Source: a virus
Virus record (IMG/VR): IMGVR_UViG_3300022744_000001
Span: 258,022 to 322,021 of that record
DNA length: 64,000 bases
Strand: one strand, 5' to 3'
Shown here: positions 3,727-50,261 of the stretch, in pieces
Position numbering within the stretch: position 1 is the first letter of the stretch
How the letters are laid out: each line of letters starts with the position of its first letter
The notes under the pieces: generated by a model
What the model was told of the DNA's origin: nothing
Seen by the model: the letters and a program-made list of their open reading frames with translations, nothing else
The model's database searches: none
Program-made: the position numbers and the translations under genes

Positions 3727-5304
3727 TCACTTGATCAACTTGAACTGCTCGGAACGACGATCCGAAGCAAGCCGCGCCCGGACCCCATCATCCACGCTGG
3801 GGTCGTACCCCACCCACTCGAGGATGGCCTTGATCTCGTCCCCCATAGTAGTGATGAGCCTCGGCTTGCGCTCGAGCTGCTGGAGCAAAATCTCCTCGTC
3901 CAACCCTTTCTTCTTGGAGTTGAAGGACTTCACCAGGGACGACTCCATCACCTGTTCAATCTCGCGACCAACGAGAGACACCGATTTCTCGGCCAGATGG
4001 GCAAGGTTGAACTTGCTCATGTCCTGCCTCATCCGCTTGCCGTGAATCTTGAGGATATCGATGCGGTCTTCCTCCGATGGCAGGTCGAAGAAAAAGCGCT
4101 CGTCGAGGCGGTTGACCATTTCCGCGGGCAGGTTTTTCAGGCTGTTGGCCGTCATCACGATGCTCACGGGGGCTTTGGACTCCTGTGTCCAAGTGGAGAG
4201 GATGCCAAGCAGGCGAGACGTTGTACCCGCGTCGCTCTGCGCCGAGGAGGCCGACCCAGACAAGCTCTTCTCCGCCTCATCGACCCACATGATGCAAGGG
4301 GCCACCGAATCCACGATGCGAAGGGCTCGGTATAGGTTGGCCTCGGATTCACCCAAGGCTGAGGTGCGGATGCGCCCCATCTCGAACTGAACCAGGGGTA
4401 GCCCCCACTCGTTGGCCAGCGCTTTTGAGCACAAGCTCTTGCCGCACCCATGCACCCCCACAAGCAGTACGCCCCGAGGCGGCTGCAACCCGAACTTCTG
4501 ACCCTCCTCGGTCCAACAGGCTTTGCGCTCCTGCGCCCATGCCTTGAACCGTTGCGCCCCACCCACGGAGGAGAACGAGATTCCCTCCGTGTTGACCAGG
4601 TGCACCAACTCGCTCTTGCGAATCTGTTGGCGCTTGTATCGAGCCACGAACTCGGGCTCGATGACTCGAACGTCTTGAGGGTGGTGTTTCATGCGCGAAG
4701 ACACCACGGACAAAGACATAGCCGACTCGATTTCATACGAGGTCAGACCAGCGAACAGCCTGGTGGGGTTTTCCGGCAACTCCGGGACCTTGAGTTTCGC
4801 CGCCAAATTCGTCACCGTAGTCATCAACTCTTCGGGCGAAATCTCAGTTTCGTCCACGACCTCGATGTACCGCTGGAGCTTCTCCGGGATGTTGCGGCGG
4901 TGGTTCACGAAGATGAGGCACTTGGTGGAGTTGATGTCCTGGTGTGCCTGGTAGAGGATGTTCAGAATGCGCCGCACCACGTGGGCGTCCTGAAACCAAC
5001 GGTCCGGGTCGAGGATGAGGTAGTGGTGCGCCTTGCCGTTTGGGACGTCGTTGTAGACCTTCATCAAGGCGTCGTTGATAGAAGCGATCTTCTGATCCGG
5101 AGCCGCAGGCTTCTTGGCCTTCCAGTCCTCCACCACTTCGGCGATGTTCTTTATCCCCGTCGTAGCGTTGTAGACCCACACCCTCTCTTCGTTCTTCTTC
5201 ATCTTCTCGTGAAAATTCACGACGAAGCGGTCCTCCTCGTCAACAATGACGTACAGAGCTTTGGTAAAAGCCCGGAGGTGAAGTGACATCTCTTGGCTCA
5301 GCAT
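3727..5304 (-). CDS. classic-clade AAA+ ATPase (525 aa) with an N-terminal domain of unknown function
   Basis: Walker A is PPRGVLLVGVHGCGKS and Walker B is IMWVDEAEKS. A second region of homology reads …VMTANSLKNLPAEMVNRLDERFFFDLP, matching the TNRPDxLDxAxxRxGRFD pattern. Confidence 0.8.
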   Translation of the reverse strand: MLSQEMSLHLRAFTKALYVIVDEEDRFVVNFHEKMKKNEERVWVYNATTGIKNIAEVVEDWKAKKPAAPDQKIASINDALMKVYNDVPNGKAHHYLILDPDRWFQDAHVVRRILNILYQAHQDINSTKCLIFVNHRRNIPEKLQRYIEVVDETEISPEELMTTVTNLAAKLKVPELPENPTRLFAGLTSYEIESAMSLSVVSSRMKHHPQDVRVIEPEFVARYKRQQIRKSELVHLVNTEGISFSSVGGAQRFKAWAQERKACWTEEGQKFGLQPPRGVLLVGVHGCGKSLCSKALANEWGLPLVQFEMGRIRTSALGESEANLYRALRIVDSVAPCIMWVDEAEKSLSGSASSAQSDAGTTSRLLGILSTWTQESKAPVSIVMTANSLKNLPAEMVNRLDERFFFDLPSEEDRIDILKIHGKRMRQDMSKFNLAHLAEKSVSLVGREIEQVMESSLVKSFNSKKKGLDEEILLQQLERKPRLITTMGDEIKAILEWVGYDPSVDDGVRARLASDRRSEQFKLIK

Positions 5305-5332
5305 CGCTTGGCTACCTCTCCTGAATCAAATA

Positions 5333-5376
5333 CACCGAAAAAGGAAAGGGCCCGTCATTGCTGACGAGCCCTTTCA
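5333..5376 (-). terminator. rho-independent terminator candidate downstream of gene 5396..5755
   Basis: Plus-strand gaaagggcccgtca-ttgc-tgacgagccctttc forms a 14-bp stem with one mismatch and a 4-nt loop. On the minus-strand RNA the hairpin is followed by uuuccuuuuucgg (a U-run). Coordinates are approximate to within 2 nt. Confidence 0.5.
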
Positions 5377-5395
5377 CAGACAAGCTGTGTGAGGA

Positions 5396-5755
5396 TCAGC
5401 CAGTCTGCCAAGTCAGCACAACGACCTTCTCGCCGTTCTCCTCAACGACGTCGCGGCCGATGATTTGCACGCCTTCTTTTTCCGACTCGCGGCGGTATTT
5501 CGCCTCGGCGTACCACTGGCGAAGAATGCTCACGTCGCTTTTGGTGACCTGATTGCCGGTCGTGTGGCGGACAGCATCCACGTCACCGCTGGAGACTTTG
5601 CCCGTGCGAAGATCGACGGTCGTTCCGTTGTAGATGCCGGTCTTGAGGGTGAAGACTTGCTGCGATTCGCTGAACTGAACCTTGTTGTTCCGCAGCGCAT
5701 CGATCAAGGCTTCGCGGTCGTTGATGCTGGTTTTGATGGTCAAACGATGGGACAT
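5396..5755 (-). CDS. hypothetical protein (119 aa)
   Basis: An ORF followed by the hairpin terminator. Confidence 0.55.
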   Translation of the reverse strand: MSHRLTIKTSINDREALIDALRNNKVQFSESQQVFTLKTGIYNGTTVDLRTGKVSSGDVDAVRHTTGNQVTKSDVSILRQWYAEAKYRRESEKEGVQIIGRDVVEENGEKVVVLTWQTG

Positions 5756-5785
5756 AGCGCTTTCCTTTTCCTCAACGACCTACGG

Positions 5786-5974
5786 TCAATCCCCGACGAC
5801 CTCGTGCTGGGTCGGGGTGCAGTCGGGAAGTTCCTCGTCCGAGAGGACCTCGCCGACTCGCTCCGATACCCGGTACGACTCGGAGCACAAATGGCGCCCC
5901 CGATTCGTCACTTCCGTGACGACCCGTCCATCCGGGTAAAACTTGGCAATGCCGGTCATCGGTCCTTCGCTCAT
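5786..5974 (-). CDS. hypothetical small protein (62 aa)
   Basis: The protein has balanced composition (MSEGPMTGIAKFYPDGRVVTEVTNRGRHLCSESYRV…). Its start overlaps the upstream gene's stop by 4 nt in an ATGA-type coupling. Confidence 0.4.
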   Translation of the reverse strand: MSEGPMTGIAKFYPDGRVVTEVTNRGRHLCSESYRVSERVGEVLSDEELPDCTPTQHEVVGD

Positions 5975-6603
5975 TTGGAATCTCCTTGGTTTGGTTTCGC
6001 AGCGGGTGTTCCCCCCTCTACACCGGTGCCCAGTTGAATCCGGGCTCCTCGTTTCACCAGCTTTTCATTGGAACCTACTGGGGCTGGAGCTTCCCAGGGA
6101 TCACGCGAAGCTGGTTTTGCTTCAGGGGTTGGCCCACCTCGCAACATGACCCCTTCTTGTCGAGGGGTATTGATGAGCACCACGTCCTGAGTCAGCGTTG
6201 TGCTCAGAATGCGAGGCGGGGGCGGTTCCGGCGGAAAGACCGCCAACGGAGCTTGGGCTTCATTGACTGGAGGGCGGATGTCTTCCGGAACCTGAACCGT
6301 GGTTGGCTTCAAATCCCGAGGGTCGTCCCAGCTGCCCTGTTTCCCAGGGGGCGGAGGCGTGAACATCTTGAACTGCTGCCCCTGGATTACCTGAAACCGA
6401 GGGTCGCTAGGGTCCATCCTGGGCACGTCTGTAAACAGCCGCTCCTCCCAGTGAAGGACTCGGTCGTCAAACTTGGTTTTCCTGTGGAGACTGCGGGTGC
6501 ATTCAGGCTGGTAGCACCGGAAACAATGTGTCTCCTGCAAGTGCTCGAGCGTTACCCCAGGGGTGAGGCAATCCTTAACGCAATCTCTACGGGCCATACC
6601 CAA
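5971..6603 (-). CDS. hypothetical protein with an N-terminal Cys cluster and a Pro-rich middle region (210 aa)
   Basis: The N-terminus reads CVKDC…HCFRCYQPEC, a possible zinc-binding region. It is followed by PPPPGK/PPEPPPP low-complexity segments. Confidence 0.5.
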   Translation of the reverse strand: MGMARRDCVKDCLTPGVTLEHLQETHCFRCYQPECTRSLHRKTKFDDRVLHWEERLFTDVPRMDPSDPRFQVIQGQQFKMFTPPPPGKQGSWDDPRDLKPTTVQVPEDIRPPVNEAQAPLAVFPPEPPPPRILSTTLTQDVVLINTPRQEGVMLRGGPTPEAKPASRDPWEAPAPVGSNEKLVKRGARIQLGTGVEGGTPAAKPNQGDSK

Positions 6604-6612
6604 GCCGCTCTA

Positions 6613-9426
6613 TCAAAGGTTCAGTTCACGGAGGCGGGCATTGAACATGCCCTCGTCCACCGTGAGCGGGATTTGGTCGGGGTCGATCAAGATCTCCCCC
6701 GTGGTGATGTGTTTGAGTCGAACCAGCTTCCCGCTTTCCTGGTTGTAGGCGTGATGAACGGCCTGCCAAACCTGGCTCACACTCTGTGTGCTTAGGTTCG
6801 CAATCCATGCTTCAAACACTGGGCGGTTGCTGGTTGTCGTTCGAGGGGCCGCTGGGGCCACGTACGCCTTTGCCTGAGCCGCTGGAGCGGGGGTAGAAGG
6901 CACTGGGGTGGCCGGGGGCGGCGGAGCCCCACCGTCGCTCGAGGAAGGCGGGGGCGGGGCCGCTGGAGGCGGAGTGTGCCCGTCCTTCTTCCAATCGGGT
7001 ACCAAGTAGGGCTCAAGAAAATCGGGCACCCTCTGGTAAACCCGGTCTCCCACGCGCATTTCGCTGCTCTTGAGGGGCTTGTCACCGGGCTTCTCCGGCT
7101 TGTGCTCCCCGTGAAGGATCTTGTGCAGGTCGTACTTGGCGTCCCAGCTCTTGTCGATGAGGGGCTCGGCAACCAAGGGCACCTTCCAAGCCTTGTCTCC
7201 TCGCGGAATACGGCCGGGGAAGGTCATCCACTCATCAACCACCGGGGCCACTTCCATGATGTGCTCGAGCTTGACCTCGAACACGATTTCATCGTGCACC
7301 GTAAGCATCATGCGAACGATGTCGTTCTGGTACCAACCGCGCTGGTAGAACGTCTTGTGGAGTTTCACCATGGCGATCTTCATGATGTCCGCACCAGAAC
7401 CCTGGATGGGATAGTTGATCGCAGCGCGCTCACCCCCGGCCTGGATGGCCTTCTCGGGGTTGTCGATTTCAGGGATCGGAATCCATCGACCAAAGGCGGT
7501 CCAAACGCCCTTCTCCATGTGGACGCGCTTCTTTTGCGTCGCAACCCACTTGGCGAATGTCGGCAGACTCTTGTCGAAGTTGCTCTTCCTTCGGGCGGCT
7601 TCGGTGGGGTTACACCCGGTGGCACGCATGATGGCCTGCTGACCACCACCGTACACGAGCGAGAAGTTGGCCATCTTGCCCGCTTGGCGCTCTTGTTTTG
7701 TAACGTCTTGCTTGTTGAAGAAAGCTCGAGCCGTGATGGAGTGCAAGTCGCCAGAGCCTTCCAGGAACTCCTTCTCCCAGATCGGCTCCTTCGACAGGTT
7801 GGTCACGATGCGCAGCTCTTCACCGGCAAAGTCCACCTTGAGAATCACATACCCAGGACGTGCGATGAACGCTCGACGAAGGGCCGTTGCCACCTTCGGC
7901 TTCTTCTCATCGTAGCCCGAGGGAATGCCGTGGATAGGCACACCACCATAACCGTGGTCGGGGTCGCCTGCGGGAGCGCTGAAGCGACCCGTAGCGGCAC
8001 CGACCTGCCGGAACTGGTAGCGAAGGTCCCCGTACTGGTCGCAGTTGTTCGCCATGCTCTTGAGGTAGGTGCCGACGACCTTCTCAACCTGCCGGAACTT
8101 GACGATGGTGACGAGAATGGGGTTGATGTTCGAGTTCTCCTCGACCAACTTTTCCAAGGTATCGGCGTCAGTCTTGTACTGACCCGACTTCTCATTCATC
8201 TGCGGTTTGGGCTCCATGTTGAGCCCGTTCGGGCTCGCGAAAAGGAACTCAGAGAGCTGCTTGGGCGACTGCGGGTCGAAGTCCCGGAACCCGTGCTGGG
8301 ACGCCAGGGCGACGATTTCAGCGCGATAGATGGCCGATTCCTTCTCGGCTTCCGCGAGCAAGTTGCGCACGTAGTCGATATCGATTCGGATGCGGTTACG
8401 CTCCATGATGCGCGTAACCTGTGTGACCTGCTTCTCGAGTCGGTAGGTCTGGTTGTACTTGGGGCTGGTGAGGATCTCCTGCATCTCGGGTTTGGTGCAG
8501 TGCAGGAACGTGCAAATTGAGTCACCGCCCCAATACCAACGGCACTCGTGAGGGTCCAGCTCGGGGAACGAAATCTTGCGCCCGGGAGCGAAGCATTCCT
8601 TCAGCTCAACCATCTCGTAAGGTACCGTCGAGCCATTCTCGATGACGGGCTTGCCCCTCTCGTCCATCACTTGAAGGTTGCGCTTGGACTTGTCCTTCAA
8701 ACCCAAGCTTTTGTCGCTCGAGAGTTTCGTGAAGTACATGAGCATCCCGTCCTCGAAGGACTCAGGATGCCACCAGTCGATGCCCGTGACGGGGTAGAGG
8801 AACTCCTGGTCAAACTTGGCGTGCCAGAAGTACAGCTTGACCTTGCCCGGAGTCTTGATGACAGGGCTACCAAGAGGGTCGTCGGCGAGGGCCGCGGGGT
8901 CGATCTCCGGTTGGGCCGCAAGGCAGAGACGTCGAATCTCCCGGCTCACCACGTCGAGGTCAACGTTCTTGGCCATCTCGGCGGTGTGCCGAATCGGAAT
9001 GTAGTAGCCGTCTCGACCATTTGGGCTGATGCAGTACCCCACGATTTTGTGCACGGTTTGGGGCACACGCACGGGGGGATTGGCCGGGTCCCAGAAGCAC
9101 TCGTACTTCCCGGTCAACGTCGCCGGGTCATGCCAGTAGATGCGATTGTCGAGGCCCTGGGTCTCGAGGTCGAGCGACGCCCTACCCGATGCAAGGCAGG
9201 CGTCAATCAACTGAACCAGCTGCTCCTCATTCTCGATCAGGATGAAGTTGTGATACTTCATCCACGGACGTTCCTTGATGTTCACGTCCTTTTCCGGAGT
9301 GACCCCCATCGACGCCATCATGGCCATCGGGTCGTCGTCGTCGGTCTCCATCGGGGGCAGAGATTGCGGCGCGGGCTGAGCCTCCTCTTGCAGTGGTGGC
9401 AGGTCGTCGTCTTCCATTTCAGACAC
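6613..9426 (-). CDS. family-A DNA polymerase (Pol I-like) with 3'-5' exonuclease domain and a C-terminal extension
   Basis: Exo motif I is LDLETQGLD. Motif B is RQAGKMANFSLVYGGGQQ and motif C is LTVHDEIVFEV. There is no 5'-3' exonuclease domain. About 190 aa follow the normal Pol-A C-terminus (…SWDAKYD), comprising a Pro-rich linker and a further domain of roughly 90 aa. Confidence 0.9.
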   Translation of the reverse strand: MSEMEDDDLPPLQEEAQPAPQSLPPMETDDDDPMAMMASMGVTPEKDVNIKERPWMKYHNFILIENEEQLVQLIDACLASGRASLDLETQGLDNRIYWHDPATLTGKYECFWDPANPPVRVPQTVHKIVGYCISPNGRDGYYIPIRHTAEMAKNVDLDVVSREIRRLCLAAQPEIDPAALADDPLGSPVIKTPGKVKLYFWHAKFDQEFLYPVTGIDWWHPESFEDGMLMYFTKLSSDKSLGLKDKSKRNLQVMDERGKPVIENGSTVPYEMVELKECFAPGRKISFPELDPHECRWYWGGDSICTFLHCTKPEMQEILTSPKYNQTYRLEKQVTQVTRIMERNRIRIDIDYVRNLLAEAEKESAIYRAEIVALASQHGFRDFDPQSPKQLSEFLFASPNGLNMEPKPQMNEKSGQYKTDADTLEKLVEENSNINPILVTIVKFRQVEKVVGTYLKSMANNCDQYGDLRYQFRQVGAATGRFSAPAGDPDHGYGGVPIHGIPSGYDEKKPKVATALRRAFIARPGYVILKVDFAGEELRIVTNLSKEPIWEKEFLEGSGDLHSITARAFFNKQDVTKQERQAGKMANFSLVYGGGQQAIMRATGCNPTEAARRKSNFDKSLPTFAKWVATQKKRVHMEKGVWTAFGRWIPIPEIDNPEKAIQAGGERAAINYPIQGSGADIMKIAMVKLHKTFYQRGWYQNDIVRMMLTVHDEIVFEVKLEHIMEVAPVVDEWMTFPGRIPRGDKAWKVPLVAEPLIDKSWDAKYDLHKILHGEHKPEKPGDKPLKSSEMRVGDRVYQRVPDFLEPYLVPDWKKDGHTPPPAAPPPPSSSDGGAPPPPATPVPSTPAPAAQAKAYVAPAAPRTTTSNRPVFEAWIANLSTQSVSQVWQAVHHAYNQESGKLVRLKHITTGEILIDPDQIPLTVDEGMFNARLRELNL

Positions 9427-9856
9427 TAGGTACCCCCTTATCTTGAACGAGCACGATATACACCCCCTCCTTCCAGAGTCTGATCAGGTCGGAGGCAAGT
9501 TTTCTAGCTTCTGGCTCTTCGATCCCTTCGGGTTCGAAGCAGACGCGTAAGATTTTTGACCTTGGTACGCAGTGTTTTGCGTCGTAAAGCGGGCAGGTAC
9601 CCCGCTGAAAGCAAACTGGGTGCGGTAGTTTCCTCAGCGCCCCATCGGGGGGAATCCCAAGCTGTTGCACGAGAGGTTTGGACCAGCGGTAAAGGGCATG
9701 GTCCATGTCCTCCTTGGAAACCACTGTGAGAAGCGAGGTGATCGGACTACCTTGGAGGGCTCGCCACTGGGGTTCCCAAACACCGTCTTTCGAGTAAATG
9801 AGGTACAGCTCGAGGTCCCCCATCTCGAGTGTCTTGATCTTGAGCCGTCTAGGCAC
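9419..9856 (-). CDS. hypothetical protein (145 aa)
   Basis: An ORF overlapping the Pol start by 8 nt. Confidence 0.5.
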   Translation of the reverse strand: MPRRLKIKTLEMGDLELYLIYSKDGVWEPQWRALQGSPITSLLTVVSKEDMDHALYRWSKPLVQQLGIPPDGALRKLPHPVCFQRGTCPLYDAKHCVPRSKILRVCFEPEGIEEPEARKLASDLIRLWKEGVYIVLVQDKGVPSV

Positions 9857-10515: not shown

Positions 10516-12012
10516 TTAGCCCAGGAAAAGCTCGTTGATTGCATCAGTGGCGGCTCGGAAGTCGTCCACGGTCATACCCTTGTCCGAAGACGTGGAGAGC
10601 GGGTCAAGGTTGCCCATACGACGGGTTTTCCAGTCGATGGTGCAGTTGAAGGGGGTGAACATGGGTCCATCACGACGCTTGAGGCAATCGAAGAACGGCG
10701 TGCCTTGTTTGCGAAACTCTTCGTTCAAGTAGGTGGTCGTGACAATGTCCGCCGAACGCTCGGCCTCGTTGGCGTAGCTGAGCGCGCGGAGCTTGTATCG
10801 CCCTTCCATCTTGTCCGCGTAGTCCTTACCATCGCGGTTGATCTGGAAGAGCATGAGCACAGGCACTTTCTCACCATGGTTGAACTGCAACGCCAACTTC
10901 TTCGCATCACGAAGAATCGAATTGAGTTCAATCGTGTAGTCTTTGCCGCGCTTGTGCTTCTTGGCTTCGACGAGACCACCATGGTCGATGACCAGGAGGT
11001 CGATTTGGTTCGAGTTGTGGGCGATCTCAGCCTGCACCCGAATGTCATCGATGGTGACGTCCGAGTCCGGACCCCACACTTCGAACGTCCCGTACTCCGG
11101 GTTCTTCGAGAAGTCGTCCGCCACCATGTTGAGGAACTTCTCCTCGTCCGGCGTAAGCTCGCCGTTCTTGACCTTCTCGTAGTCAAGCGGGGCGAATTTG
11201 GCAGGGTCGAGGCCGTTCAACTCAGCCCAGGCCCGGAAGCGGCCGTTCGAGCTGTGCATCACGTAAATCTGCTGGCGGATCTGCTCGTAGGGCATCTCCA
11301 AGGTCACGTAGAAAACGTTGCCTCGGTACCGTGTCACCAGGTTGTAAGCCCAGTTGAGCGCAAACGTGGTTTTCAGCTCGCCCGTGTAGGCCGCGTGAAG
11401 CCACATCTCACCTTTTTTGATGCCCTTGACGATCTTGTCGATGTTGTTGATGCCGCAGAACTTGCCCCAGGTGAGGTTTTTGTTCGCCTTGGCCGTCTGG
11501 TACTCGGCTTTGACCTCTTCGCCATCCTCGCGGATGTTGCCCTGGATGCGTGACGAGCTGTTCTGCACCAAGAGGCGGTGCACGCTCTGAACCACGTGCA
11601 TGACGCCGTCACGAAGGCCCTGCTTCTTTTCCTTCTCAATGATGAGGCCCTTGGAGATGATCTCCATGCCCTCTTTGAAAAGCTTGATGGCCCCGAACTT
11701 GTTCTGCTCCTCGAGCGTGGTCGAGAGCAGGTGCGCGAAGTTGGTGCGCACGTATGGCGTGACGCCATCGAGGTCTTTCAGCTTCTCGATCGCCTCTTGG
11801 TCCTTCTGGGCCTCAAAGTAGTCCACCAAGGTTTGCTTGGCAGGTACCTCGAGCCGCTGCTGGAAATACCGGACCGAGAAGTCGTAGATGCGCTTGTCGG
11901 GCGGGGCGTTCCACTCGATGCGCGAAGGGATCAGCTTCTGAAGGTTGGACACCAGCTCAGGCTGCTTGACGTCGCCGTAGTCAAGGATGCTGCGAAGAAT
12001 ACCCTTGCTCAT
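10516..12012 (-). CDS. DnaB-like replicative helicase (498 aa)
   Basis: The segment LTWGKFCGINNIDKIVKGIKKGEMWLHAAYTGELKTTFALNWAYN aligns to DnaB G..TGF..LD…G.L.IIAARPxMGKTAFAL. TLEMPYEQI matches the H1a SLEMS.EQL motif. LLVIDHGGLV is the Walker B and LMLFQINRD is the arginine-finger region. Confidence 0.8.
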   Translation of the reverse strand: MSKGILRSILDYGDVKQPELVSNLQKLIPSRIEWNAPPDKRIYDFSVRYFQQRLEVPAKQTLVDYFEAQKDQEAIEKLKDLDGVTPYVRTNFAHLLSTTLEEQNKFGAIKLFKEGMEIISKGLIIEKEKKQGLRDGVMHVVQSVHRLLVQNSSSRIQGNIREDGEEVKAEYQTAKANKNLTWGKFCGINNIDKIVKGIKKGEMWLHAAYTGELKTTFALNWAYNLVTRYRGNVFYVTLEMPYEQIRQQIYVMHSSNGRFRAWAELNGLDPAKFAPLDYEKVKNGELTPDEEKFLNMVADDFSKNPEYGTFEVWGPDSDVTIDDIRVQAEIAHNSNQIDLLVIDHGGLVEAKKHKRGKDYTIELNSILRDAKKLALQFNHGEKVPVLMLFQINRDGKDYADKMEGRYKLRALSYANEAERSADIVTTTYLNEEFRKQGTPFFDCLKRRDGPMFTPFNCTIDWKTRRMGNLDPLSTSSDKGMTVDDFRAATDAINELFLG

Positions 12013-12899
12013 ACGATGTCGTCCCTCGTGTCTTTCTTGCCCTTCTTGGACTTGTAGCGAGAGGGCTCGGAAACCTCATTGAGAACCGCATCGTGGACGG
12101 GAGCTTCCATCCTTGATTTGCGCGGGGGCGGCGGGGTGGACGGCGTATCTTCCTCCTCCTCATCCACAGCCAAGCCAGGTTCATGGCTGCTCTTGGGCGG
12201 CGGTACGTAGCTCTTCTTCTTGGTCAGGTTGATGGTCTTGAACCGGGCCGAGATGTAATCCGCCGTGTCCTCGGAATAGGCGAAAAGCCCCGGCCCCCAA
12301 AGCATGTCGGGCTCCGGGCTTTCCACGATCCAGGTCGGAAGCGACGCGGCTTGCCGGATCAGGAGGGCTTCTTTCAGGATGCCGGGCATCGCAACGTTCT
12401 TGTGCCCGAGAAACCCTAGCTTGATGATGACCAGGTCGAAGTCAGTCCCGATCAGGTCCGACAGGGAGTTGTAGACCGGAATCTCCTCTCGCTTCTTTTT
12501 GTTTTGCTTGTCGTAGGACTGCTTCCCCAGGTAGACCGTTCTGAGCTGCTCGTCCGTGACAATGTGTATGCGGTAGTTGAGGTCGGTCGAGTACAACTTC
12601 CACGTGAGCACGTACTTGAAGTGGGAGCACAGATCCGCCCACCAGCCTTTGATGAAAAGGTTGGATTTGGTCTCGTCTACCTCCGGTGGCTCCCCAGGCT
12701 CCGGCGGCACGTACAAGGGCGAGGAAGGAATCCCAGGGGCCGAGGCAATCTCGGTCCCCACCTTGAGCTTGAACATCTTGGCGAAGCCGCAATGGCATCG
12801 TACCCAGGTGTCGGTCTCTCCCTCGACTCCTGGTTTGGTCAAAATGCGGCCAGCTCCACCGCATTTTGAGCATACCTTCTCCTCTTGAGGCATCTGCAA
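12009..12899 (-). CDS. zinc-ribbon protein translationally coupled to the helicase gene; possible helicase loader or replication initiator (296 aa)
   Basis: The N-terminus reads CSKCGGAG…RCHCGF, a Cys4 ribbon. The C-terminus is acidic and Pro-rich. Its stop overlaps the DnaB-like start in an ATGA arrangement. The function is inferred from gene context only. Confidence 0.5.
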   Translation of the reverse strand: MQMPQEEKVCSKCGGAGRILTKPGVEGETDTWVRCHCGFAKMFKLKVGTEIASAPGIPSSPLYVPPEPGEPPEVDETKSNLFIKGWWADLCSHFKYVLTWKLYSTDLNYRIHIVTDEQLRTVYLGKQSYDKQNKKKREEIPVYNSLSDLIGTDFDLVIIKLGFLGHKNVAMPGILKEALLIRQAASLPTWIVESPEPDMLWGPGLFAYSEDTADYISARFKTINLTKKKSYVPPPKSSHEPGLAVDEEEEDTPSTPPPPRKSRMEAPVHDAVLNEVSEPSRYKSKKGKKDTRDDIV

Positions 12900-42135: not shown

Positions 42136-42606
42136 TCAGAAGTTCCAGCTAGAAATGTCCTGCCCCACGCACGCATACAGCGAAGTGTTTACCCCGTAGA
42201 CCCCATACCCCACGCCACGGGGGTACTGAATACCGTCCGGGTCAGGAAACTCAGTCAACCAAGACACGAAGCGGTTTGCGGTGCTATCCCAGGCGTAATT
42301 CACAACGCTCTTGTCACGCACCCAAACCGAAGTTGCCCAGGTACCCCCGAGGGAAGCACCCTCCACGAGAGGGGTGCTGGGGAAACTGTAGTTACCGCCC
42401 GAGTAGTTGGCTCCCGCTAAAGGTAAATACGAAGCGATTGTGCCAACACTCTTGCCGGTCGAGGAGTACCAACCACCACTTGCAACAACAACTGAGGGGA
42501 CCGTGTACGAAATAACTCGAGACGCGCTCGCAAAGTTGCCGCCGCCAGCAGTAACCACAGAGGTTACTGCCCCAAGGCTCCTCGTGTTTGTGGTGAAATT
42601 GGCCAA
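42136..42606 (-). CDS. small fibre-associated protein A1 (156 aa), paralog of A2; candidate tail-fibre assembly chaperone
   Basis: MANFTTNTRSLGAVTSVVTAGGGNFASASR… aligns with A2's MANFTGNSRTLSTVGVIATASGGNFAGASR…. It sits directly downstream of B1. Confidence 0.6.
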   Translation of the reverse strand: MANFTTNTRSLGAVTSVVTAGGGNFASASRVISYTVPSVVVASGGWYSSTGKSVGTIASYLPLAGANYSGGNYSFPSTPLVEGASLGGTWATSVWVRDKSVVNYAWDSTANRFVSWLTEFPDPDGIQYPRGVGYGVYGVNTSLYACVGQDISSWNF

Positions 42607-42614
42607 GGGTCACC

Positions 42615-43583
42615 TTAGAGCGTCGGCGCGGTATTGTTCTCCCACGGCACAACATGAGTGGAATCCACCCAAGCATAAGCATCCGTAGTGAGATTGGCCG
42701 TATCCGGGTAGGCTCGAGAGAAATTGCCCCCAAAAGCTAGGCGCTGAAAGATGCCCTTGAACCCATAGTTGGTAGCGCCATCAACTTGAAGTCGAAAGAG
42801 GCCCGCGAACAGGTAATACTCCTCGTTGCTGTCAAACGGGTTCGGGGAAACACTCTGATTCGCCGCAGTAGGAGGGATTGGCCCAACGGTACCCGAAGCA
42901 GTCGAAGCGGTCCAATGCCAGTTGGTGAAGCTAGCCCCGCTAAGACCGTACTTTGACCAGGCGAAAGTGGAAGTGTTGATCGGAGACAAAACGGCGGAGG
43001 TGACAAGACCTGCGGTGAGGTTGATGAAAATGCCTACGGGGGACGTGTCCAAGGCGTTCGTGTTATTGAGGCCGTCAAAGAAAATCCGCGTACGCGGCGT
43101 ACCGGTCGTGTTGTCAGTAGTGAAGAAAAAGAATGAGTAGACGTTGGTACTCACAACATCACTGAAAGCGATGCTGTGGCACTTGTACGTGTTGTCCGTG
43201 TTGAAGAGCGCCACGCCAGTAGGGGCAGCATCGGTACCAGAGCCAAGGATCACGCCCTCATCAGTTGCTGAAGGAGTTTGAGTGATTCCAGGGGTACCGC
43301 CTGTGAACTTAGCGCTCTCGGAAAATTTGACGCGCCAAAGCAGGTTCGTAGTCGTTCGCTGGAAAGTGAACTCCCGCTGAGTCCCCGGATCTTGGATACG
43401 AAACCACGCGTTGGTCGCGGCCAAAGAGGTCGAGAGCGTGATCTGGTCTCCGGTCGAGTTGTAGGTGGTGCCATTCGAACTCGACTTGACGACCCAGCCC
43501 GCAGAAACCAGCAACTGCTTCAACGAGAAAATCGCAGCAGCCCCGGTCGCAGGAGTTTGATTGACCGAAGTAAACTTCGCCAT
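42615..43583 (-). CDS. fibre-like protein B1 (322 aa), paralog of B2 and B3
   Basis: The N-terminus MAKFTSVNQTPATGAAAIFSLKQ…TTYNSTGDQIT…NAWFRIQDPGTQREFTFQRTT…LWRVKFSESAKFTGGTP is conserved across B1, B2 and B3. The C-terminal two thirds diverge but end in VPWENNTA. Confidence 0.75.
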   Translation of the reverse strand: MAKFTSVNQTPATGAAAIFSLKQLLVSAGWVVKSSSNGTTYNSTGDQITLSTSLAATNAWFRIQDPGTQREFTFQRTTTNLLWRVKFSESAKFTGGTPGITQTPSATDEGVILGSGTDAAPTGVALFNTDNTYKCHSIAFSDVVSTNVYSFFFFTTDNTTGTPRTRIFFDGLNNTNALDTSPVGIFINLTAGLVTSAVLSPINTSTFAWSKYGLSGASFTNWHWTASTASGTVGPIPPTAANQSVSPNPFDSNEEYYLFAGLFRLQVDGATNYGFKGIFQRLAFGGNFSRAYPDTANLTTDAYAWVDSTHVVPWENNTAPTL

Positions 43584-43589
43584 GGTACC

Positions 43590-44558
43590 TCACATCTGCG
43601 CGGCGGTATTGTCTTCCCACGGCACCGCAAAATCCGTGGAAGTCAGCACGTAGGAATTGCTGGTAATACTTTCCGTGAACGGGTAGGACCTTGCAAAATT
43701 CGTCACGTAGGCCAGACGCTGGCAAAACCCCTTGAACATAAGATTGGTGTCTGTGCTCGCCCGGTACAACCCCACCAGTTTCAGCAGTAGCTCATTACCA
43801 CTGTAGATGTCCGGGCCAACACCGTTTCCTGCCGTAGTCGCTGGCACATAAGCCGTGCCGATGTTGGCAATCGCCCACACCTTCCAGTTAGTGAAGGCTG
43901 CGCCGCTGAGCCCGTACTTGTACCAACCCCAAACCCACGTAAGAACTGTACCAGACATGAGAGTGCCAGCACTGAAGGCACCCGAGGAGTTCACCAGGAA
44001 GATCCCTAGCGGAGAAACGTCGGCCGCGTTTACCGGTGACAAACCGTCCACGAAAAACCGGGTTCGAATGTTTCCGGAGTTCGGGTAGTCCGTGGTGAAG
44101 AAGAAGAACGAGTACACGTTGGTCGCTACCGCATCGCTGAAAGCGATCGCATGGCACCGATAGGTCGCATCCGTGTTGAAGAGAGCTGCACCAGTAGGGG
44201 AAGCATCGGTACCCGAACCGAAGATCACACCCTCGTCGGTCGCAGAAGGTACCTGGGTAACGCCAGGAGTGCCCCCTGTGAACTTGGACGACTCAGAGAA
44301 TTTGATCCGCCACAGCGTGTTGTTGGTCGTCCTCTGGAAAACAAACTCTCGCCGTGTCCCAGGGTCCTGAATGCGGAACCACGCGTTGGTCGCGGCCAGA
44401 GACGTTGTGCCTGTGATCTGGTCCCCGGTCGAGTTGTAGGTGGTACCATCACTCGAGGCTTTGACTGACCAGCTCGCGTTCACGAGCGTTTGCTTGAGGC
44501 GGTAAACCGCTTCGGCACCAGTCGCTGGAAGGTTGTTGACTGAGGTGAACTTAGCCAT
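43590..44558 (-). CDS. fibre-like protein B2 (322 aa)
   Basis: The N-terminus MAKFTSVNNLPATGAEAVYRLKQ… has the same architecture as B1 and B3. Confidence 0.75.
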   Translation of the reverse strand: MAKFTSVNNLPATGAEAVYRLKQTLVNASWSVKASSDGTTYNSTGDQITGTTSLAATNAWFRIQDPGTRREFVFQRTTNNTLWRIKFSESSKFTGGTPGVTQVPSATDEGVIFGSGTDASPTGAALFNTDATYRCHAIAFSDAVATNVYSFFFFTTDYPNSGNIRTRFFVDGLSPVNAADVSPLGIFLVNSSGAFSAGTLMSGTVLTWVWGWYKYGLSGAAFTNWKVWAIANIGTAYVPATTAGNGVGPDIYSGNELLLKLVGLYRASTDTNLMFKGFCQRLAYVTNFARSYPFTESITSNSYVLTSTDFAVPWEDNTAAQM

Positions 44559-44561
44559 AGG

Positions 44562-45035
44562 TCAGTTCCATCCCGTGCGGTCACGCCCCACGTAGGTATA
44601 GCCAGAAGTGTTTGTTCCAAACGCCCCATACCCAGAACCCGAGGGGTAGAACTGCCCCTGGGGATCAGGCTGCTGCGTCCTCCACGTAACGATTCGACCT
44701 GCAATCGAGTCCCATACCGAGTTGATGATAGACAGATTTCGCGAAGGCCAAACCGAAGTCTGATAGTTTCCGCTGTTCTTGGGACCCTCAATCAAAGGGG
44801 TAGCCGGAAAGCTGTGGTTGCTACCCGAGTAGTTAGCGCCCGCAAGAGCCACATAAATGGCAGTTGTGGCTGAAAGCGAACGAGGAGTGGTTGCATAAGT
44901 ACCGCCTGAAGCGGTCGCGATTATCCCAATCGTCGTTGGGATAGAACGAGAAGCTCCAGCGAAGTTGCCCCCAGAGGCGGTCGCGATTACCCCAACCGTC
45001 GAGAGAGTGCGACTATTGCCCGTGAAGTTCGCCAT
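44562..45035 (-). CDS. small fibre-associated protein A2 (157 aa), paralog of A1
   Basis: See A1. It sits directly downstream of B3. Confidence 0.6.
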   Translation of the reverse strand: MANFTGNSRTLSTVGVIATASGGNFAGASRSIPTTIGIIATASGGTYATTPRSLSATTAIYVALAGANYSGSNHSFPATPLIEGPKNSGNYQTSVWPSRNLSIINSVWDSIAGRIVTWRTQQPDPQGQFYPSGSGYGAFGTNTSGYTYVGRDRTGWN

Positions 45036-45046
45036 AAGGCTCTACC

Positions 45047-46030
45047 TCAGAGAATCGCCGCGGTACTGTTTTCCCACGGAATCACGAAAGTCGTGTTGAC
45101 CCAGACATAGGCATCCGTGGTCAGGTTCAACGTGTCCGGATAGGTTCGAGCCGAGTTCATGTTGAGAGCCATGCGCTGGCTGATGCCTTTGTAGTGCTGG
45201 GAGGTGTCCGTGCTATCCCGGAAAGCCCCGCAAATTTTGGCAACGTCCTCGTCCCCCGCGTAACCGTTCGGGGAAACGCTCACGCTGTAAGGAGGAACCG
45301 ATGTCGCCGCCGAAGAACCTGTCGCAGTGCGGGTGAGCCCAAACATACGATAAACGTTGAACGCCGCGCCGCTGAGCCCGTACTTGTACCAAGCCCTTAT
45401 GATGTTGAGGGTGATAGTGACATTGTGGACATCTGTAGACGTCAAAATCGCAGTCTTGTACGCCGCAACGATGAAAAGAGGGGAGGTGTCTTGTGCGTTA
45501 GAGCTGTGGACGCCCGAAACAAAGAAGTAGGTACGAGTCAAGCCCGTGGTGAAATCCGTAGTGAAGAAATAAACGTCGTAGACGTTGGTACTCACTACGT
45601 CGCTAAAACAGATAGCGTGGCTGCGATAGGTCGCATCCGTGTTGAACATCTGCGTACCGGTTGCGGTAGAGTCGGTACCAAGAGCCGACCCGAACAACAG
45701 GGCTTCGTCGGTCGCTGTCGGGGTCGTCGTCGCGTTCGGGGTGCCACCCGTGAACTTGGACGACTCGGAGAATTTCACACGCCAGAGCGTGTTGTCCGTG
45801 CCTCTCTGGAAGGTGAACTCACGTCGCGTCCCGGGGTCCTGGATACGGAACCAAGCTCGAGTGACGGCAAGAGAAGCAGCTGAGGAGATCTGGTCTCCCG
45901 TGCTGTTGTACGTAGTGCCATCTCCGCTCGACTTGACAACCCAACCCGCACTAACCATGCAGGTTTTGAGGCGGTAGATTGCATCCGCCCCTGTCGAGGG
46001 AACCTGGTTCACCAGAGTGATCTTCGCCAT
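45047..46030 (-). CDS. fibre-like protein B3 (327 aa)
   Basis: MAKITLVNQVPSTGADAIYRLKT… is paralogous to B1 and B2. A GAGGGG ribosome-binding site lies about 9-14 nt upstream. Confidence 0.75.
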   Translation of the reverse strand: MAKITLVNQVPSTGADAIYRLKTCMVSAGWVVKSSGDGTTYNSTGDQISSAASLAVTRAWFRIQDPGTRREFTFQRGTDNTLWRVKFSESSKFTGGTPNATTTPTATDEALLFGSALGTDSTATGTQMFNTDATYRSHAICFSDVVSTNVYDVYFFTTDFTTGLTRTYFFVSGVHSSNAQDTSPLFIVAAYKTAILTSTDVHNVTITLNIIRAWYKYGLSGAAFNVYRMFGLTRTATGSSAATSVPPYSVSVSPNGYAGDEDVAKICGAFRDSTDTSQHYKGISQRMALNMNSARTYPDTLNLTTDAYVWVNTTFVIPWENSTAAIL

Positions 46031-48126: not shown

Positions 48127-48837
48127 CTAAGTCTGATCCAGTTTCCATTGCCAGTAGTTTGTATACGCCTGGATCTCGTCCTCGCCCCATTCCCTATCGT
48201 CGATGAAGGCGTCAAGGAAACCACCAGCCTGGAAGGCGGATAAGTTCGTGTTCTTGCCGAGCGTCATGGGGCTGGTTGCTGCGATGGAGTTCCCCAGTGA
48301 TGCGCCGTTCTTCCAACCGATTCGCGTGCCGTTGATGTACATCGCAGCGTAGTCAGCAACTGCCCCTCCGGTCTGCACAGTTTTCGACGAGATGCCTTGC
48401 CGAAACAAACAAATCGCCTTCGTGAACGAGTAGGAGGGTCCCGACACGCCCGTAGCGATCGCTGTGCCCAGGTTCACCCAAGCCCCCGCAGGCACAGATA
48501 GGTTAGCGTTCAGGTACCAGCCGCAGTTCGAGCCCGACCAGTTGGACATGGTCACTGAGCCCGAATAGAGAACGATGCCAGCTGTGGCCATCGGGATAGT
48601 CGAGGTGTTGAGCCACGACCAGTCGGCCGCACTGGCCCCCGCAATGGATTGGCTCGCACCGTCAAATGTCAGCACGGGCAGCCCAATACCTGTCGTGGTG
48701 GTAAGCGTGGCAGTGCCTGTCAAATTCTTGGGGATCCTGCCCATGTCAGTCAGCGTGCCGCCGCTGAATTTGTGCGGGCGAAACCAATTTCGAGGCTGCT
48801 TCCACAGATGATTTTGAAAGCGGGCAATGACAGGCAC
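48127..48837 (-). CDS. LamG-like (concanavalin-A-like lectin or glucanase fold) protein L1 (236 aa)
   Basis: The C-terminal motif LGKNTNLSAFQAGGFLDAFIDDREWGEDEIQAYTNYW matches the Laminin_G_3 end signature (G…F.G.IDEVRIYNRALSAEEI). An upstream LTFDGASQSI block is also present. Confidence 0.75.
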   Translation of the reverse strand: MPVIARFQNHLWKQPRNWFRPHKFSGGTLTDMGRIPKNLTGTATLTTTTGIGLPVLTFDGASQSIAGASAADWSWLNTSTIPMATAGIVLYSGSVTMSNWSGSNCGWYLNANLSVPAGAWVNLGTAIATGVSGPSYSFTKAICLFRQGISSKTVQTGGAVADYAAMYINGTRIGWKNGASLGNSIAATSPMTLGKNTNLSAFQAGGFLDAFIDDREWGEDEIQAYTNYWQWKLDQT

Positions 48838-48846
48838 GGTGCACCC

Positions 48847-49560
48847 CTAAATCTGGTCGAGCTTCCACTTCCAGTAGTTCGTGTATGCCTGGATTTCGTC
48901 CTCACCCCACTCACGATCGTCCACGAACAGGTCTAGGAACCCGCCAGCCACAAAGGCATTCGTACTGAGGTTTTTACCCACTTGGAATGGGATCGCCGGA
49001 TTGACCGCGCCAGCGGTCCAAGTGCCCGCAGCGCGGTGGCCCACACGAAGGCCGTTGACGTACGCGGCTCCGGTATCGAAACCTGTGCTTGGCGAAACTG
49101 ATGTCCTTGTTGGTGGCGCAACACGAAACACAACCACTTGCTTGCCTGCAACGTTGCAGCCGGAAGCGCCGCACCGATAGAGCAGCGTCCCCGACGTGGT
49201 CTGGATGGCAAGGTCGGTGCCCGTGCTGCCCCACGCCAATCCGAAGACACCTGCCGTACCTGCCCCGCCCCATGTTCCAGGTTGGATCGTTCCAGTGTAT
49301 ACGACCCCGCCCATGGTGAAGGGGCCGGTCTGCATGAAGAACCAGTCCGCCACGCTGGACGCAGCCAGATACTCGCTGGTGCCATTGAACGAGCAGCCCC
49401 ACCCGCCATTCGTTAACGTCAGAGTGGCCGAACCTGTGGTGAAGTTTTTGGGCGAACGCCCCGAGTCGAGATATGACCCAGCCGCCTGCATTCGCCCCGG
49501 ATTGTACCAATGAAGCGGCTGTTGCCACTGCTCATTCACGGCGCGCGCCAAGTAAGCCAT
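48847..49560 (-). CDS. LamG-like protein L2 (~238 aa from the internal Met MAYLARAVNEQW…)
   Basis: The motifs are CSFNGTSEYL and VGKNLSTNAFVAGGFLDLFVDDREWGEDEIQAYTNYW. The track ORF extends to 49623, but that N-terminal extension overlaps L3. The start is chosen at 49560, giving a TGATG overlap with the L3 stop. Confidence 0.7.
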   Translation of the reverse strand: MAYLARAVNEQWQQPLHWYNPGRMQAAGSYLDSGRSPKNFTTGSATLTLTNGGWGCSFNGTSEYLAASSVADWFFMQTGPFTMGGVVYTGTIQPGTWGGAGTAGVFGLAWGSTGTDLAIQTTSGTLLYRCGASGCNVAGKQVVVFRVAPPTRTSVSPSTGFDTGAAYVNGLRVGHRAAGTWTAGAVNPAIPFQVGKNLSTNAFVAGGFLDLFVDDREWGEDEIQAYTNYWKWKLDQI

Positions 49561-50261
49561 CAGATCAGCCCCAACTTGTAATGCCAAAACCGTGTGTAGG
49601 CATAAACCTCGTCGTCCATCCACTCACGATTGTCGAGGAAGAAGTCGAGAAAGGTTCCCGCCTGAAAGCCTGACTGTGTAGAAGTCTTGCCAATGATGAG
49701 GGGACCCGCGGGAGTGACTGAGTTTGTGGTCCACGTTGAGTTCTTGAAGCCATAACGCCACCCATTGAAATAGCCGAAGCCCCACTCAATCTGCACACCG
49801 CCGATCGATGTGTGCGAAGACAACCCGCACCTGAAAACATGAACGGCTTTCACCGCAGGCATCACCTGGTTCATTACTCGCCAGACCGCCGAACCCGCGT
49901 TGGACATGAGACAGTCGGCCGATGCCGACCCTGGACCTGCGTTTACGGAAATCCCAGTGTTGGTCACGGCTGTGCGCGTGCACGGCGACATGATGCCCGT
50001 GTAAACCACCAGGCCCATCGTCCACGATGTATTGTGCAAGTAGGTCCAGTCCGCAGCCGCAGCGGCTGACAGGGACTGGCTGGTGCCGTTGAACGAGCCG
50101 TAAAGCACACCATTGCTGGTCGTGGTGCTCATGGTGCCGGTTAGGTTCTTGGCCGTACCTGAGCCCGAATCGGACAGCGTGCCACCGCTGTAGTCCTGTG
50201 GGCGCCAGCGATGATCGACCGACCGAACGAACAAAGGCTCAGTGCGTTGAAGGCGCGGCAT
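49560..50261 (-). CDS. LamG-like protein L3 (233 aa)
   Basis: The motifs are GSFNGTSQSL and IGKTSTQSGFQAGTFLDFFLDNREWMDDEVYAYTRFW. The N-terminus MPRLQRTEPLFVRSVDHRWRPQDYSGGTL parallels that of L1. Confidence 0.75.
   Translation of the reverse strand: MPRLQRTEPLFVRSVDHRWRPQDYSGGTLSDSGSGTAKNLTGTMSTTTSNGVLYGSFNGTSQSLSAAAAADWTYLHNTSWTMGLVVYTGIMSPCTRTAVTNTGISVNAGPGSASADCLMSNAGSAVWRVMNQVMPAVKAVHVFRCGLSSHTSIGGVQIEWGFGYFNGWRYGFKNSTWTTNSVTPAGPLIIGKTSTQSGFQAGTFLDFFLDNREWMDDEVYAYTRFWHYKLGLI

Follow-up and report, generated by a model that had tools for sequence, protein, structure and literature searches.

A conserved, leashed C-terminal domain in a huge-phage family-A DNA polymerase: a possible replisome docking module

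A stretch of 64,000 nucleotides from the IMG/VR virus record IMGVR_UViG_3300022744_000001 (positions 258,022 to 322,021 of that record; hereafter, the window) encodes on its minus strand a family-A DNA polymerase whose reading frame continues well beyond the canonical end of the enzyme. An earlier note on this DNA had drawn attention to a proline-rich linker and an added C-terminal domain in this overhang, and had proposed that the addition could tether the polymerase to a helicase, a clamp or the membrane. The locus hence raises the question of whether the overhang is a genuine part of the polymerase, how it is built and which function it might serve. The comparative and structural analyses reported here show that this C-terminal module belongs to a domain family not described before, that its leash architecture is unusual and that it is conserved throughout a clade of the largest phages known.

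Taken by itself, the polymerase is a family-A enzyme of the ordinary kind. The gene (6613-9426, minus strand) is a single, unbroken reading frame of 937 amino acids (aa), in which the Pfam model DNA_pol_A (PF00476) matches aa 352-762 over model positions 3-380 of 381 (expectation value, E, 1.2e-74; 252 bits, with a cutoff of 34.3). The NCBIfam DNA polymerase I models PRK05755.1 and pola also match, with E-values of 2.9e-79 and 3.7e-67 and scores under their curated equivalog cutoffs. The matches to PHROG 17 and to the NCBIfam models begin upstream of the polymerase domain, and those to the PHROG and NCBIfam models stop at about aa 762-770. In a family alignment of 93 sequences, polymerase motifs A (around D532), B (R580, K584 and N587) and C (H711-D712-E713) are invariant, as are the exonuclease residues D86, E88, D206, Y298 and D302. 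The family-model match and the presence of motifs A/B/C and Exo I-III both identify the protein as a family-A polymerase with a DEDDy 3'-5' exonuclease and, because these exonuclease residues and polymerase motifs are invariant, it looks from its sequence like an active replicative enzyme. The full-length AlphaFold model has a mean predicted local distance difference test (pLDDT) score of 89.6. At the opposite end of the protein, the N-terminal tail is strongly acidic (MSEMEDDD...ETDDDDP...), and its aspartate-rich pattern is kept in the family consensus; this segment could provide a second interaction motif.

The canonical end of the polymerase lies at D766, five residues past the conserved W761, and the frame runs on for 171 aa. 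All the strings quoted in the earlier note were recovered, with LTVHDEIVFEV at aa 708-718, PLIDKSWDAKYD at aa 755-766, the proline-rich run at aa 819-861 and the terminal NRPVFEAW...RELNL string at aa 867-937. Its estimate of an overhang of about 190 aa was too long, as the interval given for it (6613-7185) starts at K748 and includes 19 aa that belong to the end of the polymerase domain.

The same note had allowed that a missed stop codon or frameshift might have fused a separate downstream gene to the polymerase. Among the 120 best homologues (43-100% identity), many of which are encoded on metagenomic contigs of 200-660 kb and whose carriers are huge phages, about 118 end in the same domain, in frame and at an overall identity of 44-77%, and these come from independent assemblies. 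A protein identical to the window polymerase was called on two contigs; one such call (P0001), on the metagenomic contig ERZ27252002 k141_47206 of 448,224 bp, starts three codons later and yields 934 aa. Third-position guanine-plus-cytosine (GC) content is 0.80, 0.67 and 0.71 in the three successive parts of the tail and 0.79 in the polymerase. Because the frame is unbroken, the fusion is shared by about 118 of the 120 homologues and third-position GC content is maintained, a frameshift or missed stop is excluded: the tail is neither a chance product nor an artefact, and the probability left to an artefactual fusion is negligible.

To define the organization of the tail, the last 300 residues of 119 homologues were aligned and the full-length structure was predicted with AlphaFold. 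Both the alignment and the model outline three parts (Table 1). The first of these contains a helix (aa 767-772), a beta hairpin (aa 789-798) and a short helix (aa 811-814) in the model, with conserved residues at G773, Y797, P801, F/W803 and L804, and is predicted with high confidence to extend the polymerase body instead of acting as a linker. The tail does not, as initially described, run straight from the end of the polymerase domain into the proline-rich segment, since its first 50 or so residues (aa 767-816) are conserved and confidently folded. The second part is an intrinsically disordered leash, and the flexible proline-rich linker reported earlier is borne out by pLDDT scores below 50 for aa 830-865 (specifically, aa 830-836 and 838-865) in the full-length model. 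Proline makes up 17 of 50 residues in the linker of the window protein; over the 119 homologues the linker spans 32-108 aa (median 59), is composed of 26% proline, 15% alanine and 10% serine, and shows no conservation of sequence.

The third part is a compact, folded domain at the very C-terminus, as the earlier note had surmised, although its size is closer to 70 aa than to the 90 aa proposed. Predicted in isolation with an 88-sequence alignment, it yields a beta1-alpha1-beta2-beta3-(beta4)-alpha2 fold with a pLDDT of 95.9 and a predicted template modelling score (pTM) of 0.81; within the full-length model its pLDDT is 96-98. The family consensus reads V....I..LT..SV.QV...C......G..L.L.D...G..LIDP.LGIRV.P..F...L...NL. 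The window protein and its nearest relatives stop exactly at the ...NL of this consensus, and remoter relatives extend it to ...NLSDGxYxL, the added ...SDGxYxL probably forming one more strand. The domain has a mean net charge of -0.6 (range -7 to +6), and its identity to the window protein (20-53%) is lower than that of the polymerase core (46-77%), indicating that it diverges faster. It lacks a CxxC metal site, the only semi-conserved cysteine lying in helix 1 and being replaced by valine in the window protein, and inspection of its sequence detected no hydrophobic, transmembrane or amphipathic segment.

Searches of Pfam, PHROGs and NCBIfam with the tail, and of PDB sequences with the domain profile, did not return any match, nor did a tblastn search of 50,697 GenBank phage records with the tail alone. 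A word-indexed search of 5.8 billion proteins with the tail alone also returned nothing, and missed even the identical protein, its candidates probably being swamped by proline-rich low-complexity sequence. An exhaustive HMMER search of 1.84 billion representative proteins with the domain profile (E up to 0.001) matched 87 proteins, each representing a cluster. Three of them (P0299, P0300 and P0309) are long repeat proteins in which only short repeated stretches of the profile are matched, and were discarded as spurious. In the remaining 84 the domain is C-terminal, and every match with enough upstream sequence to be judged belongs to this polymerase family; short matches, which start within either the linker or the domain, have the appearance of fragments at contig edges. 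The domain is hence essentially private to this polymerase clade. The suggestion that homologous enzymes might share the tail as a known domain holds insofar as the whole huge-phage clade carries it, but the domain has no description in the databases searched. Likewise, no convincing case was found of related phages encoding the tail as a separate reading frame, with two possible exceptions.

These two proteins, P0307 (247 aa) and P0310 (120 aa), match the profile weakly (E around 1e-4) and have N-termini unlike the polymerase; as judged from their sequences, they may be free-standing versions of the domain. After the domain they carry acidic tails ending in ...WERLGEDEFGV or ...WERLGEEVF, similar to the acidic-aromatic tails found in SSB and in proteins of the T7 replisome. 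Six independent clusters of 247-297 aa (P0258, P0262, P0266, P0269, P0277 and P0279) start with a methionine at the equivalent of aa 679 and run through the tail to the C-terminus, a stretch that corresponds to aa 679-937 of the window protein (6616-7392 in the window). Residue 679 coincides with the second of two intein sites in the family, and these clusters may represent split polymerase genes or gene calls that begin behind an intein or mobile element. Many relatives contain inteins (Pfam LAGLIDADG_3), one or two per protein, at the equivalents of about aa 583 and about aa 672-679, and the carriers, which include P0005, P0019, P0034, P0240, P0251, P0252, P0263 and P0282, reach 1,300-1,730 aa; the homologue lengths of 1,300-1,700 aa are thus explained by inteins in several of them. 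The window polymerase is free of inteins. In GenBank, its nearest relative is encoded by a 485-kb uncultured phage (LR745208.1) and shows 34% identity, the maximum to any GenBank phage polymerase. This polymerase (L082, plus-strand reading frame at 3926-9214; 1,763 aa from stop to stop) contains inteins and ends in a serine/proline-rich linker followed by a short beta-alpha-beta segment (VRIYQLKSLGLSELEPLARIMAGG...RLRVLDPEGGDI...) that obtains no score with the domain profile. Given this similar ending without a profile match, the layout may be older than the recognizable domain family.

Throughout this single clade of huge-phage family-A polymerases, the conserved layout is that of a catalytic core, a folded 50-aa extension, a disordered linker and an independently folding domain of about 70 aa. 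The combination of a rigid body, a disordered leash of 32-108 residues and a small, near-neutral folded domain points to a tethering module and not to a catalytic or DNA-binding one. We give about an even chance to the proposal that the tail is a leash-and-dock module, docking the polymerase onto another component of the replisome. The terminal domain would act as a protein-binding module, and the flexible leash would tie the polymerase to its replisome partner as the catalytic body binds and releases DNA in cycles. In this way, a T7-type polymerase could gain the retention at the fork and the coupling of leading- and lagging-strand synthesis that a 450-kb genome needs. Candidate partners would be the DnaB-like helicase and the primase-like protein encoded next to the polymerase, the small conserved neighbouring proteins, a tau-like or clamp-loader-like organizer encoded elsewhere in the genome, or the tau protein of the host. 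Fast divergence is usual for co-evolving interaction modules, and that of the terminal domain fits co-evolution with a partner.

The docking proposal draws on the best structural analogue of the domain, which keeps alpha, a subunit of DNA polymerase III (Pol III), on its organizer, tau. Foldseek searches against PDB and BFVD returned no significant match, but among the 50 matches listed Pol III alpha chains presented the highest query-normalized template modelling (TM) scores (5fku_A, 0.52; 4iqj_B, 0.46; 4iqj_C, 0.44). The Foldseek output does not contain the aligned residues of alpha, and the matched region was inferred. The OB domain, which is the other part of the alpha tail, is an all-beta fold, and cannot be the matched region because such a fold cannot match an alpha/beta domain. 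The alpha structures among the 60 listed matches are all full-length, and neither PolC nor Mycobacterium tuberculosis DnaE1 is among them. PolC has the PHP, palm, thumb and fingers in common with alpha but lacks the C-terminal domain (PMC3919608), and the M. tuberculosis DnaE1 crystal structure comprises only residues 1-933 (PMC5636811). In Escherichia coli, the tau-binding domain corresponds to alpha residues 1079-1160 (PMC4703070). Inspected by eye, this segment presents the succession GLAISL / DDQLLNRLRQSLEPH / IPVHLYY / ARLRF / WRVSP / DRLLNDLRGLIG / VELEF, with its elements in the same order as in the phage domain and with a [W/I]-R-V-x-P motif followed by a helix in both. Since only full-length alpha chains were listed, PolC and the truncated DnaE1 were missing, the OB domain is ruled out and both the element order and the motif agree, the region matched is probably the tau-binding domain. 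In E. coli, the extreme C-terminus of tau, an unstructured segment, binds this domain (PMC1888804; PMC4703070), and a partner might similarly bind the phage domain as a short peptide. The near-neutral mean charge of the phage domain is close to that of the Pol III alpha domains (-0.4), which argues for a protein binder over a DNA binder, and fast divergence has also been reported for the alpha C-terminal domain (PMC3919608). Tethering is thus the best-supported part of the original proposal, with Pol III alpha, and most likely its tau-binding domain, as the closest structural match. Its other parts fared differently: no evidence of clamp binding was found, and no sign of a membrane tether was seen, the domain having a soluble alpha/beta fold and no hydrophobic segment.

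Several observations weigh against this interpretation. The E-values of the Foldseek matches to PDB are 0.8 or higher and hence not significant, and the E. coli alpha tail in 5FKU derives from an 8 Å cryo-electron microscopy structure (PMC4703070). This tail may not be independent of the Thermus aquaticus (Taq) crystal structure, in which case the two matches count for less than two. The Pfam model of the alpha domain (DNA_pol_IIIA_C, PF20914), which recognizes the domains of E. coli (E 1.1e-30) and of Mycobacterium (E 3.3e-5), failed to match any of 88 phage domains (E up to 1) or any of three full-length phage proteins (E up to 10). An hhalign comparison of the phage profile with a 75-sequence alpha-domain profile, built from 67 gammaproteobacterial genomes and actinobacterial fragments, aligned 52-70 columns colinearly and in the expected register, but at noise level (P 0.018, probability 2.6%). 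The real score was reached by none of 100 column shuffles and by two of 100 block shuffles, and a reversed profile nearly reached it. With full-length or sliced DnaE, a spurious match of 13-21 columns at residues 792-804 scored higher, and the alpha C-terminal domain was not the top-scoring slice. Comparisons of the domain profile with E. coli DnaE alone and with a shallow alpha-domain profile also remained at noise level. Eight phage-encoded DnaE proteins provided no bridging sequence, as most of them end at the OB domain and the two with a C-terminal domain fail the phage profile. A convergent origin of a simple ferredoxin-like sandwich is possible. Furthermore, the 64-kb window shows no gene for tau, a clamp loader or a clamp; the AAA+ ATPase encoded downstream of the polymerase was considered as a clamp loader or tau analogue and rejected, being Cdc48/p97-like. 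The partners named above are candidates, and docking is proposed by structural analogy.

The lack of a sequence signal is nonetheless weak evidence either way, because the alpha C-terminal domain is poorly conserved, to the extent that it goes undetected in many DnaE proteins (PMC3919608), and because a phmmer search with the E. coli domain missed the Taq chain. The proposed link between the phage domain and the tau-binding domain of Pol III is structural and indirect, and lacks confirmation from sequence. A more specific scenario, which we consider possible but doubtful, is that a family-A replicase captured the docking domain of a family-C polymerase and plugs into a replisome organized by tau and the clamp loader, be it that of the phage or that of the host. 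The domain would then be a fossil of the swap between Pol A and Pol III alpha that separates jumbo phage groups 3.2 and 3.1, the latter of which is defined by a T7-type polymerase (PMC7824862). In some group 3.1 phages with such a polymerase, an RFC-like loader occurs but no clamp is detectable (PMC7824862).

Other functions can be envisaged for the same architecture. The terminal domain could self-associate, so that polymerases on the leading and lagging strands would be coupled directly through their leashes and no separate organizer would be needed. Small ferredoxin-like domains often pair via exposed beta edges, and the window protein and its closest relatives lack the final strand found in remoter relatives and in alpha, so that the edge of their sheet could be open; the absence of a tau-like gene from the window also fits. 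No result obtained here indicates oligomerization, however, and the closest structural analogue binds a different protein (PMC4703070), making self-association an unlikely explanation. An equally unlikely one is that the domain docks outside the replisome, for instance on a compartment, on a factory associated with membranes or on the packaging machinery, or that it folds back on its own polymerase and there has an autoinhibitory or regulatory effect, possibly sensing a ligand as ACT or HMA domains do. The lack of a CxxC metal site and of transmembrane or amphipathic segments argues against it, as does the location of the gene within a replisome block; moreover, the 40 or so low-confidence residues that separate the domain from the polymerase body in the full-length model suggest that it is mobile and not docked.

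Direct binding to DNA is less probable still. Fused DNA-binding domains raise the processivity of family-A polymerases, and the phage domain would act as a built-in enhancer of this kind. Yet the net charge of the domain averages slightly below zero, a Pfam scan detected no HhH, OB or winged-helix signature, and a floppy leash of this length is ill-suited to clamping an enzyme on its own template. Docking onto a replisome component remains the reading we prefer.

The genomic context places the polymerase within a replication block (Table 1), which is strictly syntenic in four genomes whose polymerases are 44-100% identical. The block runs through an SNF2 helicase, a zinc-ribbon protein of about 290 aa, a DnaB-like helicase, a primase zinc-ribbon protein, a protein of about 140 aa and the polymerase, and continues with a cysteine/proline-rich protein of about 200 aa, proteins of about 60 and 115 aa, a Cdc48-like AAA+ ATPase and nucleotide-metabolism genes. 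The arrangement of the 134-145-aa protein with respect to the polymerase start suggests translational coupling, and this protein is a possible accessory subunit or partner; the DnaB-like helicase is likewise a candidate for binding the tether. A search of the syntenic neighbours for conserved C-terminal peptides of acidic or aromatic character, which would be candidate ligands of the domain, gave nothing obvious. The protein encoded immediately downstream of the polymerase has a cysteine-rich N-terminus (C..C...C..C....C) and a proline-rich middle part in which DPW motifs occur; close to its C-terminus, G-A-x-I/V-x-x-G is conserved.

Table 1. Features of the polymerase and of its gene neighbourhood (window coordinates; amino acid positions refer to the polymerase).
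Feature	Amino acids	Window position	Strand	Evidence and remarks
Polymerase gene		6613..9426	-	937 aa from GTG start; 934 aa from ATG at 9417; stop codon 6613-6615
Acidic disordered N-terminal tail	1-55	9262..9426	-	AlphaFold pLDDT <50 for aa 1-31
3'-5' exonuclease domain	~56-320	8467..9261	-	D86, E88, D206, Y298, D302 invariant
Family-A polymerase domain	352-766	7129..8373	-	Pfam PF00476 and invariant motifs
Conserved C-terminal extension	767-816	6979..7128	-	Conservation and pLDDT 90-97
Disordered Pro/Ala/Ser/Thr linker	817-868	6823..6978	-	Low pLDDT, unconserved sequence
C-terminal domain	869-937	6616..6822	-	beta-alpha-beta-beta-(beta)-alpha, ~70 aa
134-145-aa conserved protein		9419..9856	-	End overlaps or abuts polymerase start in 4/4 genomes; no Pfam/PHROG match
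Primase-type zinc-ribbon protein, 218 aa		9849..10505	-	Pfam Zn_ribbon_DnaG E 6.8e-5, just under curated cutoff; NCBIfam dnaG weak; syntenic
DnaB-like replicative helicase, 498 aa		10516..12012	-	Pfam DnaB_C E 1.7e-20; NCBIfam DnaB; syntenic
183-216-aa protein		5971..6603	-	Starts 10 nucleotides past polymerase stop; position conserved across clade; no Pfam/PHROG/NCBIfam match
Cdc48/p97-type AAA+ ATPase, 525 aa		3727..5304	-	Pfam AAA; PHROG 8638; NCBIfam CDC48 family; PDB best matches p97/Cdc48; syntenic

Other members of the block also present distinctive features. The Cdc48-like AAA+ ATPase, a fixed member of the block and an unusual companion for a replisome, carries an N-terminal region of about 270 aa (PHROG 8638), and in related phages both this ATPase and the SNF2 helicase are intein-bearing. 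The zinc-ribbon protein of about 290 aa (12009-12899, minus strand) combines an N-terminal CxxC...CxC pattern with a basic C-terminus; in all four genomes its gene reaches into the start of the DnaB-like helicase gene, and the protein is a candidate helicase loader. The remainder of the window consists of a tail and baseplate module, which identifies the source, whose genome is about 450 kb, as a huge phage of the myovirus type. Very large reading frames (1,527, 2,377, 709, 867, 579 and 1,804 aa) occupy 16964-42081 on the minus strand, the sole match being a weak one to a tail-protein PHROG on the first of them, and 54801-58247 encodes a 1,148-aa protein with a baseplate-wedge domain. Within this structural region, 42136-46030 and 48127-49623 (both minus strand) harbour tandem paralogues without Pfam matches: three proteins of about 322 aa (53-60% identical) interleaved with two of about 156 aa (53%), and an adjacent pair of 236 and 258 aa (38%).

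Little has been established about how the replisome is organized in the largest phages, which copy genomes of 0.4-0.7 Mb. The simplest replication core has been ascribed to jumbo phages with T7-type polymerases, which in some cases have a clamp-loader-like ATPase and no detectable clamp (PMC7824862). A conserved, tethered docking module would offer a concrete and testable handle on this architecture, with the 70-aa domain usable as bait for the organizer. If the link to the alpha tau-binding domain is true, docking modules would have been exchanged between unrelated polymerase families, and recruitment of host tau by these phages would become possible. At the least, the domain amounts to a family not described before, with 87 representative clusters, by which this polymerase clade can be recognized in metagenomes.

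The phage polymerase resembles bacterial Pol I enzymes of the Klenow/Klentaq type in its exonuclease and polymerase motifs and in the position of its canonical C-terminus, a few residues after a conserved tryptophan (W761 here). Pol I, however, stops at that point, whereas the phage protein adds 171 aa and lacks a 5' nuclease domain. Both it and T7 gp5 are family-A replicases of phages, have a 3'-5' exonuclease and work beside a hexameric helicase and a primase module. In the T7 replisome, two partners hold gp5, namely thioredoxin and the gp4 helicase-primase with its acidic C-terminal tail; gp5 makes these contacts through basic patches and a thumb insertion and, to our knowledge, has no C-terminal extension. 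With respect to the tau-binding domain of Pol III alpha (DnaE1; PF20914), the phage domain sits on a family-A and not a family-C polymerase, shows no significant sequence or profile similarity, lacks in the window protein the last beta strand of alpha (...VELEF) and has no tau gene near its polymerase within the 64 kb analysed. It is also carried on a long, disordered, proline-rich leash, whereas the domain of alpha follows the OB domain in a rigid tail. The C-terminal region of tau (DnaX) links alpha and DnaB via flexible linkers, and the phage tail is similar to it in that a flexible tether would keep the polymerase in the replisome. There is no kinship to tau in sequence or fold, and in the phage system the leash belongs to the polymerase itself.

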